Below, piece after piece: positions 870 to 3,438 of a stretch of DNA of 57,429 nucleotides. The notes beneath the pieces were generated by a model. The model did no database searches. It saw nothing but the letters and a program-made list of their open reading frames with translations, and had not been told where the DNA came from. Location of the stretch: the NCBI GenBank assembly GCA_964522525.1, contig CAZFWG010000014.1, positions 2,492 to 59,920 on the forward strand, read 5' to 3'. The position numbers and the translations under genes are program-made. The number at the start of each line of letters is the position of its first letter. Position 1 is the first letter of the stretch. Source of the stretch: an uncultured Alphaproteobacteria bacterium (lineage in GTDB: Bacteria > Pseudomonadota > Alphaproteobacteria > JAJFIK01).

Positions 870-1550
870 ATGGCAAAGACGCTTTCCCTGATTCTCGAAC
901 CGCTCCTCCTTACCCTCTCCACGGCCACCACGGTGAGCCGGTTCTGGGCCGGATGGCCGGGCCGGGCGCCCGCACGTCTGCCCGATCAGCCGGTCATTCT
1001 CTATGAATTCGAGGGCTGTCCCTTCTGCCGTATTGCCCGGGAAGCGGTCACGGAACTGCGCCTGCCGGCGGAAATCAGACCCTGCCCCAAAAACGGGGAG
1101 CACTTCCGCCCCCAGGTCCAGGAAATGGGCGGCAAAAGCCAGTTTCCCTATCTGATTGATCCGAATACGGACACCCGCATGTATGAGAGCGCCGATGTCG
1201 TGCGCTATCTCTACCGGACCTATGGCGGGCGCATGGCGCCCGTGTCCCTGTTTCTGGGGCCCTTGAACGCGCTTCTCTCCTCCCTCGGCCTCACCTTCCG
1301 GCTGGGCAGCGGGATGAGCCGTCGGGGCCGGACCGGGACAATCTCGGAACCCCTCGACATGTGGGGGGCGGAGGGCGACCCGCGGGCGAGGCTCCTGCGC
1401 GAACTCCTCTGTGAACTGGAACTGCCCCATATCCGCCGGCCCGGTCCCGGCCCTAATGGCAATCTCGTGGCCCTGTACGATCCCAATACGGACCATGCCG
1501 TGGGTGGCTCGCTTGCGGCCCGCGCCTATCTCCTTGAGCGCTATGGGTAG
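870..1550 (+). CDS. Glutaredoxin/GST N-terminal domain protein (two thioredoxin-fold repeats, second degenerate)
   Basis: LYEFEGCPFCR..RE..TEL, GGKSQFPYLIDPNT...MYESAD; second copy LRELLCELELP...LYDPNT. Confidence 0.85.
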   Translation: MAKTLSLILEPLLLTLSTATTVSRFWAGWPGRAPARLPDQPVILYEFEGCPFCRIAREAVTELRLPAEIRPCPKNGEHFRPQVQEMGGKSQFPYLIDPNTDTRMYESADVVRYLYRTYGGRMAPVSLFLGPLNALLSSLGLTFRLGSGMSRRGRTGTISEPLDMWGAEGDPRARLLRELLCELELPHIRRPGPGPNGNLVALYDPNTDHAVGGSLAARAYLLERYG

Positions 1551-1554
1551 ATCC

Positions 1555-2124
1555 ATGATCCGGTATCGCATCTTGGCGGCCGTCCTCCTCTCTCTCGGTC
1601 TCGGGGCGGCCGAGGCCCGGGCCATCGACCCACAGGAATGCGTGGCGTTCGCCGCCACGACCGACGGCCTTCGCGAGATCCGCAAGGGCGTCTTGGCCGA
1701 GATCAACGAGGTCCGCCGGGCCAACAGGCGCAACTGGCTGACCGTCAGTGTGCGCCTTGATCGCGCGGCCCAAGACCACGCCGAGGACATGGCCAGCCGC
1801 AGAGTCATGAGCCATTTCAGCGCGGATGAATCGACGGCCGGCGACCGCGCCCGGAGAGCGGCCTATATCTTCAAACGCGTCCAGGAAAACGTGGCCGTCG
1901 GAGACTTTACCGTAGACGGTGTCGTCCAAGCCTGGCTCGACAGTCCCTCCCACCGGGAGGCCATGCTTTGGAAGGAAGCCGAGGAAGTGGGGATCGGTTT
2001 CGCGATCGGCGAGCGGCCCCTGGTGGATGAAAAACAAGAAATCCGAGGCTGCTACTGGGTGCTGGTCCTTGGCGATCCGCTCTTCGATGTCAACTACGGC
2101 AGTCGGTTCCTGGATGGACGGTGA
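1555..2124 (+). CDS. Secreted CAP/SCP domain protein
   Basis: Signal peptide; INEVRR, AAQDHAEDMA, ENVAVG, W.DSP.HREAML, EVGIG, YWVLV motifs. Confidence 0.88.
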   Translation: MIRYRILAAVLLSLGLGAAEARAIDPQECVAFAATTDGLREIRKGVLAEINEVRRANRRNWLTVSVRLDRAAQDHAEDMASRRVMSHFSADESTAGDRARRAAYIFKRVQENVAVGDFTVDGVVQAWLDSPSHREAMLWKEAEEVGIGFAIGERPLVDEKQEIRGCYWVLVLGDPLFDVNYGSRFLDGR

Positions 2125-2134
2125 CGATGAAAGC

Positions 2135-2162
2135 TTGACAGCCTGAGGCTGGCGCGTAGGTT
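2135..2162 (+). promoter_or_regulatory. Putative sigma70 promoter of the uORF-yjhX transcript
   Basis: TTGACA (2135-2140), 16-nt spacer, TAGGTT (2157-2162). Confidence 0.55.
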
Positions 2163-2179
2163 CACGTCTTCCTTTCGCA

Positions 2180-2306
2180 GGAGTGTTGATGTCTTTCTGT
2201 TCTGAGGCCCGGTAAGGCCTGTCCCCCGTCGGACAGGCAGTTTTGAGAACACCTCGCGGAACCACCGCGACGGTCCGGGTTCCTTATTGTCAGAGCAGAA
2301 ATCTCC
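2180..2306 (+). promoter_or_regulatory. Structured 5' leader (candidate translational attenuator) of the yjhX-family gene
   Basis: TTTCTGTTCTGA 2194-2205 pairs with TCAGAGCAGAAA 2290-2301; GGCCCGG 2206-2212 with CCGGGTT 2275-2281; inner hairpins 2217-2238 and 2254-2270. Confidence 0.7.
2189..2215 (+). CDS. Putative leader peptide/uORF MSFCSEAR
   Basis: AGGAG RBS at 2179-2183, ATG 2189, TAA 2213-2215; it covers the 5' strand of the leader's outer stem. Confidence 0.6.
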   Translation: MSFCSEAR

Positions 2307-2564
2307 ATGAATGTCTCCAAACGGGAGCAACGCGTGCTGCACGCGCTTGCCCAGGGCGGTGCCGTGATTCTGGAGCGGGACGAAAGGCGCAAGATCATCG
2401 CCGCGTCCTGCGTCACACGGGAGGGGTGGACCCTCGCCGATACCGACCTTTCCTTGTTCAGACGCTTGAAGCGGCGGGGGCTGATCGCCTCGCGCGGGGG
2501 CGGCCCCTATCGGATCACCGAACGGGGTCTTGTCGCGGTCCGTCCCCAGATGAACAACCGCTGA
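2307..2564 (+). CDS. YjhX/TopAI family (UPF0386) protein
   Basis: MN.SK.EQRVLHALAQGG, C.TREGW.L, F.RLKRR.LI.SRGG.PYRIT..GL.AVR.Q..NR; 85 aa, matching the family pattern. Confidence 0.9.
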   Translation: MNVSKREQRVLHALAQGGAVILERDERRKIIAASCVTREGWTLADTDLSLFRRLKRRGLIASRGGGPYRITERGLVAVRPQMNNR

Positions 2565-2594
2565 CAACACAGCCCCACCCCAAACAAAAGAGGC

Positions 2595-2632
2595 CGACGC
2601 GGCCGGAGGCACGTCCTGCTTCGGCCGCGTCG
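2595..2632. terminator. Long GC-rich hairpin downstream of the yjhX-like gene
   Basis: CGACGCGGCCGGAGGCA-cgtcc-TGCTTCGGCCGCGTCG. Confidence 0.5.
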
Positions 2633-2709
2633 ATCACAGGTCTGGCCGCTGACGCGGGACTTTGCTAAAGCCTTGTGTCGGGGGACAGGTTCGGCGCGGG
2701 GAGGCCGTC

Positions 2710-3438
2710 ATGCTTCACTTTCTGAGACTGCCGCTTTTTTTCACGACGCTCTTCGCCATCCTGCTCAAACCCCTGACCTTTTTCCGGGACTTCCATGCCC
2801 TTGTCACAAACCGTGAGGGGCGTTTCTTCGATATCAACGCGGAGAAAGAGGGCGATCCCTATCTGGGCCCCGTCAAGTTCGCGGCGCTTGCCATCGTGCT
2901 TTCCAATCTGCTCTTCCCCTTCACCCTGTCGCTGGGCGTCCAGGTCGGCGCGGTCAGCCAGGAATTCGTCGCCTTTGCCGACTGGGCGAAGGAGACCGGC
3001 TATCTGGATCCCATCCGTTTCACCGGCATCGGCTTCATCGACAAGTTCCTTCGCGACATCCTGGCCCTGATCGTTTTCTATGGCCTCGGTGTGCTGATCA
3101 GCCTCTATTCGGGCGGGATCATCCCGTTCCGTTTTGCGGCCGGCTATTTCTACTATTGGAATGCCTGGAGCGTGCTGAGCGCCTTTGTGGGCATCGCAAT
3201 GATCCTCGTGTCCTTCTTCATTCCCCTGTATCAGACCGGCTTTCCCATGATTGTCGATCTCGGGATCAATCTCATCAGCATGTTCATGTTCATCGGCTTT
3301 CCGATCCTGTTCTGGCCTCGTTTCATCGACATTTCCATGGGCCGCGCCGCGATCGCCGTCATCGGCGGTCTGGCGACCTGGATTGCAGCCATTGCGATCA
3401 TCGTGCCCTTGTTCGTCACGATGCCGGAGTTCGGATAG
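2710..3438 (+). CDS. Hypothetical polytopic membrane protein
   Basis: GGGGAGG RBS before ATG 2710; about six hydrophobic segments; host-like codon use. Confidence 0.75.
   Translation: MLHFLRLPLFFTTLFAILLKPLTFFRDFHALVTNREGRFFDINAEKEGDPYLGPVKFAALAIVLSNLLFPFTLSLGVQVGAVSQEFVAFADWAKETGYLDPIRFTGIGFIDKFLRDILALIVFYGLGVLISLYSGGIIPFRFAAGYFYYWNAWSVLSAFVGIAMILVSFFIPLYQTGFPMIVDLGINLISMFMFIGFPILFWPRFIDISMGRAAIAVIGGLATWIAAIAIIVPLFVTMPEFG

Follow-up and report, generated by a model that had tools for sequence, protein, structure and literature searches.

In a 57,429-nucleotide (nt) stretch of DNA from an uncultured alphaproteobacterium (contig CAZFWG010000014.1; hereafter the window), a homologue of the toxin gene yjhX/topAI is preceded by an eight-codon upstream open reading frame (uORF) that is predicted to pair along its length with the start region of the toxin gene. 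We consider it likely that this leader is a diverged toiL-type switch, operated by ribosome occupancy of the uORF, on a yjhX gene that lacks an adjacent antitoxin gene. Its features are best explained by a diverged homologue of the Escherichia coli toiL-topAI leader, placed at the 5' end of a monocistronic yjhX mRNA; the published account of the E. coli leader describes a hairpin between uORF and ribosome-binding site, stalling by five classes of antibiotic and premature Rho-dependent termination within the toxin ORF when that is left untranslated (Baniulyte and Wade, eLife 2025, PMC12121999). We infer the function of the leader as a whole, as well as ribosome stalling as its trigger, the latter by homology with E. 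coli.

An earlier note on this DNA, made without database searches, had read the gene after the uORF as yjhX/topAI. A Pfam search confirmed this identity: the predicted protein matches YjhX_toxin (PF09857; E 6.9e-38, 128.9 bits) over its full length (residues 1-85), is 42% identical to E. coli TopAI and is encoded by a single-copy gene in the window genome (1 match). When the RNA from 2165 to 2325 was folded, the minimum free energy (MFE) structure reached -64.5 kcal/mol, whereas dinucleotide-shuffled sequences averaged -49.0 and none of 200 did as well (z -4.5); the MFE structure included each stem that the note had named; the promoter hexamers, AGGAG, uORF (MSFCSEAR and stop) and stems were all correctly placed, both in the sequence and in the MFE structure (Table 1). 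Codons 2-8 of the uORF form the 5' strand of two helices, P1a (12 base pairs (bp), one of them G-U) and P1b (7 bp, two of them G-U), with the 3' strand of P1a spanning the purine-rich stretch AGAGCAGAAA, 6-17 nt 5' of the yjhX ATG, within which the yjhX ribosome-binding site should be located. A further helix, P0, closes the junction by joining the Shine-Dalgarno (SD) element, spacer and AUG of the uORF to the yjhX start itself: GGAG pairs with CTCC at 2315-2318, in yjhX codons 3-4, TGTT pairs with AATG at 2310-2313, and ATG pairs with CAT at 2306-2308, that is, with C-1, A+1 and U+2 of the yjhX start. The alternative that the note had suggested for GGAG (2180-2183), pairing with CTCC at 2303-2306, proved to be suboptimal, since forcing it costs 6.1 kcal/mol (-58.4 kcal/mol). 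Inside the junction lie hairpins whose count and length differ between relatives; one of them (2254-2259/2265-2270, 6 perfect bp) is lengthened in the MFE structure by 2251-2253/2272-2274. The note's idea of an undescribed RNA motif agreed with Rfam 15, in which no family covered the leader: the region 1500-3200 gave only sub-threshold chance matches, and no match at gathering score was found in the leaders of the window, E. coli or six other yjhX genes.

We determined the extent to which these features recur across a sample of 94 yjhX loci, the window locus included. This comprised 64 loci found with the window YjhX as query in species-representative genomes, from which one weak match (L064, 36% identity) was removed, 30 further loci drawn from 401 sampled genomes of the phylum, 36 of which encode a family member, and E. 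coli K-12; two rows (L030 and L074) are identical. Under a strict rule (an ATG-initiated frame of 5-11 codons, with GGAG, GAGG or AGGA 4-9 nt upstream, lying 60-260 nt upstream of yjhX) a uORF was present in 58 of the 94 loci, as against 66 of 2820 shuffled upstream regions and 1 of 94 reverse complements. The conservation check that the earlier note had proposed came out in favour of the uORF which, judged by these sequence comparisons, is not a chance feature upstream of yjhX. With a looser rule that admitted weaker SD elements and TTG or GTG starts, candidates picked by hand were found in 85 of the 94 loci. In an alignment of ten leaders that share the peptide class of the window (class A, defined below; MAFFT alignment A1, reliable in its 5' 45 columns and last 15, the middle being unused), GGAG, TT and TG columns were invariant in the SD and spacer, and the window spacer, GTGTTG, resembles those of its relatives and of E. 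coli.

The pairing between the uORF and the yjhX start region is also conserved. Duplexes between each uORF and its cognate yjhX start (-25 to +6) averaged -15.99 kcal/mol, as compared with -11.89 kcal/mol for non-cognate combinations, and 0 of 5000 permutations did as well, in a test that ignores, and is inflated by, relatedness among the loci; the window duplex scored -17.9 kcal/mol. RNAalifold, applied to the window and its closest relatives (L003 and L005), returned 46 pairs, 5 of them with compensatory changes; in this three-sequence model the uORF spacer and AUG pair with yjhX CATGAATG, and P0 is kept in both relatives. Furthermore, the pairing has a common register. When uORF positions -9 to +3 were set against yjhX positions +11 to -1, a mean of 8.45 of the 12 positions could pair, as compared with 2.7-6.4 in control registers shifted by 1-6 nt, and 42 of the 85 loci had at least 9 pairs (0-7 in shifted registers). 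The window scored 10/12 and E. coli 8/12, and because this fixed register is shared we take the two start sites to occlude one another with the same geometry in E. coli and in the window organism. In addition, a hairpin begins within the uORF stop codon or no more than 5 nt after it, at 1 nt in most class A loci, and hairpins with a free energy (dG) of -14 or better were found at this position in 70 of 85 loci (117 of 255 shuffles).

How such a structure might act as a switch was explored by forcing a ribosome-sized stretch of the uORF to be unpaired and reading the mean unpaired probability of yjhX positions -18 to +4. In the window this value was 0.29 for the free RNA, 0.59 with a mask over the uORF start and 0.55 with a mask over its end. 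The means across the 85 loci were 0.35, 0.49 and 0.44, respectively; a control mask in the middle of the leader (74 loci) left the value at 0.36, as in the free RNA. Conversely, the SD-AUG region of the window uORF was unpaired at 0.69 in an RNA ending just before the yjhX start and at 0.24 once the first 30 nt of yjhX were included, and the same start-site accessibility fell by at least 0.15 in 46 of 85 loci and rose in 1. Within the folding model this suggests that reading of the uORF takes place mainly during transcription of the leader, and that both start sites are locked once the leader is complete. Under the mechanism we propose, a promoter near 2135-2162 would start the RNA about 20 nt 5' of the uORF, whose start site would be free during leader synthesis, allowing a ribosome to translate it. 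As the distal strand emerges, uORF codons 2-8 would pair with the stretch just 5' of the yjhX AUG, while the uORF SD and AUG would pair with the yjhX AUG and codons 2-4, shutting both starts so that no toxin is made. If ribosome-targeting antibiotics or some other translation stress held a ribosome on the uORF, be it on the start codon, on an internal codon or on the stop, the uORF strand would become unavailable, leaving the yjhX start region single-stranded and YjhX to be translated.

A number of points weigh against this reading. The counts based on 85 loci, namely those for pairing, register, masking and accessibility, depend on uORFs picked by hand from ranked candidates, which favours the model; the permutation test is inflated by relatedness. 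No clear uORF was found in 9 of the 94 loci (L026, L030, L037, L038, L040, L043, L044, L074 and L075), which were excluded from the 85; of these, by eye, L037 and L038 have ToiL-like frames and L026 has a version with an ATA start. At a threshold of dG -8 or better the post-stop hairpin does not discriminate (81 of 85 loci, 201 of 255 shuffles). A covariance model built from the window and its two closest relatives (R1) recovered distant leaders weakly, with E values of 0.001-5 amid noise; those matches ran end-to-end, at the right coordinates. If both starts are locked in the finished RNA, as the modelling has it, translation of the uORF at steady state may be low, whereas the published work on E. 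coli assumes that toiL is translated efficiently. Finally, the residues MLENVII of ToiL are not found in the window peptide, which shares just M1 (plus R8) with it, and as a consequence sequence-specific stalling cannot be transferred from E. coli.

The uORF peptides of the sample fall into classes. The toiL peptide, as read from E. coli MG1655, is MLENVIIR, and ToiL-like peptides (class B; for example MLEIVAIR, MLELVAGR, MLELVTIR, MKEIVAR, MSEIVIR and MSGIVIR) were found in 46 of the 85 loci. Class A peptides, which end in [E/Q]-[A/S/T/P]-R-stop, occur in 27 loci including the window (MSIISEAR, MSLKLSESR, MSNLFESR, MSTYAQSR and MLNLSETR among others), and 7 hybrids with both motifs, all from Caulobacteraceae (MSENVSEARA, MSEIAFEARA), link the two classes at the level of peptide sequence; the remaining 5 loci have other peptides. 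One half of a YjhX tree (30 rows, with a weak deep branch, 34/85) contains the full set of 27 class A loci, and the class A label requires 4 changes, as compared with a mean of 23.1 for shuffled labels (0 of 500 shuffles were as low). The earlier note had suggested a toiL-like mechanism with a different peptide and fold. The window peptide does differ; the fold, on the other hand, is not really different, as the pairing of the uORF with the toxin gene start, its register and the stop-adjacent hairpin are shared with E. coli, and many alphaproteobacterial loci have ToiL-like peptides. Because all these features are shared, we favour a diverged homologue over an independent invention.

Class A frames are constrained in a distinctive manner. 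They are eight codons long in 23 of 27 loci and highly variable at positions 2-5, and they end in [G/C]AG-N-CCCG-N-T[AG][AG], in which AG and CCCG are invariant across 21 distinct contexts (GAG GCC CGG TAA in the window). All four bases are seen at the variable N after AG, so that this codon specifies A, S, T or P, and the stop can be TAA, TAG or TGA, never TGG, while starts are ATG, TTG or GTG. This turnover of start and stop codons is what a translated frame predicts, and thus argues for translation of the uORF; the invariance at the nucleotide level implies that the end motif is constrained at least partly as RNA. Each of the 27 class A uORFs has an Arg codon just before the stop, as do many ToiL-like uORFs, that of E. 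coli among them. As a separate observation, the 18 nt GAGGCCCGGTAAGGCCTG, which cover the uORF end and the base of the next hairpin, are identical in the window (2204-2221) and in a Roseibium sp. locus (L050) whose YjhX is 57.6% identical to that of the window; in the single-sequence MFE structure of the Roseibium leader GAGGCCCGGTAAGGCCTG is left unpaired with the yjhX start region, and no explanation so far accounts for the shared stretch.

These constraints allow a different, and in our view unlikely, reading of class A leaders as a distinct sensor of pausing at termination rather than a drifted toiL, in which a ribosome would dwell at the stop and operate a one-shot co-transcriptional switch, after which the two start sites would lock each other. 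The invariant AG-N-CCCG-N-TRR block together with the hairpin 1 nt past the stop is what points to dwelling at that position, and both are kept even where the pairing partner of the block differs, as between the window and the Roseibium locus. If true, the leader would be the sole brake on an antitoxin-less inhibitor of TopA, and its cues might differ from those of E. coli ToiL. We find it improbable that the same architecture serves another trigger, with the uORF reporting amino-acid or tRNA supply (for instance through its terminal Arg codon) or translation capacity, or with ordinary uORF translation opening the structure transiently and thereby keeping yjhX at a low, constitutive level. The conserved Arg codon and the opening of the window yjhX start region when the uORF end is masked would fit such a reading, as would the reports, in PMC12121999, of induction by ribosomes slowed through 23S mutations as well and of an additional response of the whiB7 uORF to starvation. 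However, there is no run of regulatory codons of the kind seen in classical attenuators, and the Arg codon is always CGN within the invariant CCCG, which means that the constraint may be on the RNA; nothing in our data separates one trigger from another.

It is more doubtful that the leader is an RNA-only element, such as a thermometer or a protein- or ligand-binding repressor, with a short frame that is incidental to a conserved helix. The nucleotide-level invariance of [G/C]AG-N-CCCG-N while N varies freely, the fact that most uORF positions are base-paired and the strength of the fold by itself would suit this idea. Nevertheless, frames with a correctly spaced SD and an in-frame stop are about 26 times as common as in shuffles, the class A frames hold to eight codons and to a true stop codon, ToiL-like peptides persist across classes of Proteobacteria, and no Rfam family matches; moreover, translation of toiL is required in E. 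coli genetics, according to PMC12121999.

A simple sigma-70 scan did not call a promoter at 2135-2162, because TAGGTT is a poor match to TATAAT. Nevertheless, 46 of 85 loci have a TTGACA hexamer with at most one mismatch in the 80 nt upstream of the uORF, as compared with 284 of 1700 shuffles, and in relatives it lies mostly 46-58 nt 5' of the uORF ATG (54 nt in the window). This recurrence supports a promoter-like role for the hexamer in starting the RNA just 5' of the uORF SD, and in the window the sequence would place the 5' end of the transcript near 2169, some 20 nt 5' of the uORF ATG. The earlier note had also wondered whether the first inner hairpin (P2, 2217-2238) adds transcription attenuation. 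A terminator here, governed by the position of a ribosome at the uORF stop, is highly improbable: the hairpin lies 1 nt past the stop and is followed by four T (AGTTTT), but no terminator was called on the + strand in 1900-2800 and the T-run is not conserved, with at least four T in the 8 nt after the hairpin in just 8 of 83 relatives, at least five in 1 and an A-rich tail in 23. As an intrinsic terminator, which requires a G+C-rich hairpin and a conserved U-run, P2 was rejected on the same counts.

The yjhX gene of the window stands alone. No GNAT (yjhQ-like) or methyltransferase (yjhP-like) gene was found downstream of it, in contrast to the topAI-yjhQ(-yjhP) operon of E. coli, and such genes lie 3' of yjhX in just 10 of 88 scanned loci, E. 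coli among the 10. The best YjhQ-like GNAT of the window genome, which is encoded on another contig (36% identity over 102 residues), is a generic GNAT-level match and was set aside as an uninformative candidate for an antitoxin encoded elsewhere. While the absence of an adjacent yjhQ-like gene here and at most alphaproteobacterial loci, along with the conserved C-terminal motif, could be taken to mean that the octapeptide works in trans on yjhX, for instance as a signalling peptide or in the manner of a small antitoxin, we give this hardly any credence, given that the peptide has eight residues that vary highly at positions 2-5, that its motif is conserved as nucleotides rather than amino acids, and that full-text literature searches found no precedent.

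Next to yjhX, a strong hairpin 31 nt past the stop codon is a possible end of the yjhX transcript; terminator-like sites near it were called on the minus strand only. This hairpin also overlaps a sub-threshold Rfam match to the Caulobacter small RNA CC1840 (2589-2679, + strand; E 1.7, 23.7 bits where the gathering score is 50), which is probably a chance match. The next downstream frame (2710-3438, + strand; 242-258 aa) encodes a hydrophobic protein with no Pfam family and is not kept beside yjhX in the two closest relatives. Upstream on the + strand are genes for a GST-N/glutaredoxin-like protein (870-1550) and a CAP/SCP-domain protein (1411-2124); since these frames overlap by about 140 nt, the latter probably starts further downstream. 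Among L001-L063, 24 of 63 yjhX genes, all alphaproteobacterial, have a non-ATG start (14 GTG, 10 TTG), and the SD-like element of these GTG- and TTG-start genes is usually just GGA(C), 11-16 nt upstream. On sequence grounds, such a weak start site looks like a deliberate feature for a toxin.

Some leaders depart from the window arrangement. In nine loci from Parvularculaceae and Caulobacterales metagenome-assembled genomes (L004, L006, L012, L013, L018, L022, L023, L027 and L063), the leader is compact, at 87-89 nt; its uORF start, ATGTCCGGG, pairs with CCCGGACAT just 5' of yjhX, and the stop region, TGAACG, pairs with CGTTCA, placing the whole uORF inside one irregular hairpin. The two Marinicaulis rows (L030 and L074) yielded no SD-led uORF with an ATG, GTG or TTG start; the equivalent region is still linked to the yjhX start by a long helix, TAAGAGCCTGAACG with CGTTCAGGCTCTTA, and the uORF may have been lost or may use a non-canonical start. 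One record titled Oceanobacillus sp. (Bacillota; L055) has a YjhX that nests within Paracoccaceae and a matched leader stretch of 61% G+C, and its contig may be contamination or mis-binned alphaproteobacterial sequence.

Table 1 Features of the window leader, yjhX and the hairpin that follows it (window coordinates).
Feature	Position	Strand	Basis
Promoter-like site, TTGACA (2135-2140), 16 nt, TAGGTT (2157-2162)	2135..2162	+	sequence
Shine-Dalgarno of the uORF, AGGAG, 5 nt 5' of its ATG	2179..2183	+	sequence
P0 closing helix, 5' strand (uORF SD, spacer and AUG; partner 2306-2318)	2180..2191	+	MFE
Eight-codon uORF, MSFCSEAR and stop (ATG 2189 to TAA 2215), toiL-like, class A	2189..2215	+	sequence
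uORF codons 2-8: 5' strands of P1a (2194-2205, with 2290-2301) and P1b (2206-2212, with 2275-2281)	2194..2212	+	MFE
P2 hairpin, 2217-2224/2231-2238, 8 perfect bp, 1 nt past the uORF stop, then AGTTTT	2217..2238	+	MFE
Inner hairpins, 2240-2243/2247-2250 (4 bp) and 2251-2259/2265-2274 (9 bp, 1-nt bulge)	2240..2274	+	MFE
3' strands of P1b (2275-2281) and P1a (2290-2301)	2275..2301	+	MFE
P0 closing helix, 3' strand (C-1, yjhX AUG and codons 2-4; CATGAATGTCTCC)	2306..2318	+	MFE
yjhX/topAI homologue, 85 aa, ATG 2307	2307..2564	+	Pfam PF09857
Strong hairpin 31 nt past the yjhX stop, 11+5 bp, no + strand U-run	2595..2632	+	fold, segment z just -2.1

These data suggest that the uORF-plus-hairpin gate is ancestral to the YjhX/TopAI family and accompanies it almost universally in Alpha- and Gammaproteobacteria, that the gate is retained where no antitoxin gene lies next to the toxin gene, and that its uORF peptides fall into at least two classes, which follow the YjhX tree. 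Should the mechanism hold, YjhX would be a widespread effector connecting translation stress to DNA topology, beyond its role as half of a toxin-antitoxin pair. In addition, the two natural peptide classes would offer a comparison through which the contributions of peptide sequence and mere ribosome occupancy to the multi-antibiotic sensing of toiL might be told apart. Our full-text literature search found nothing on an alphaproteobacterial yjhX leader; published conservation of the ToiL peptide is limited to Enterobacteriaceae (10.1101/682021, in a figure titled 'ToiL conservation across Enterobacteriaceae species').

The closest known system is E. coli toiL-topAI. In both, an eight-codon, SD-led uORF lies upstream of yjhX/topAI (118 nt in the window, 139 nt in E. 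coli) and pairs lengthwise with the ribosome-binding region of the toxin gene, in silico in the case of the window; in both, the AUGs of the uORF and the toxin gene pair with each other in a common register, a hairpin abuts the uORF stop and the terminal codon encodes Arg. The SD and spacer are similar as well, GGAG..TTGATG in the window corresponding to GAGGCTTTGATG in E. coli, which has GAGGCTTTG before its ATG. The two differ in their peptides (MSFCSEAR and MLENVIIR), in the solo yjhX of the window, with neither yjhQ nor yjhP downstream, and in the multibranch junction and other inner hairpins of the window leader, alongside a TopAI identity of just 42%. In the erm, cat and msrD-type leaders, as discussed in PMC12121999, a ribosome stalled on a short ORF likewise remodels a hairpin and frees the ribosome-binding site of the main gene, as we propose for the window. 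Unlike the window, those leaders control resistance genes and have defined arrest peptides that respond to single drug classes, whereas the window leader controls a toxin gene and has no established arrest motif. A further likeness is to SpeFL, the ornithine-sensing leader of speF, in which, according to 10.1101/604074, the ribosome arrests as it terminates, when Ala33 or Arg34 occupies the P site, and all three stop codons are found across species. The window uORF also ends in A-R-stop, with a stop codon that varies among relatives; however, SpeFL has 34 residues and fills the exit tunnel to bind ornithine, of which an octapeptide is not capable. The likeness to SpeFL is limited to the last two residues, and we regard it as a lead only.

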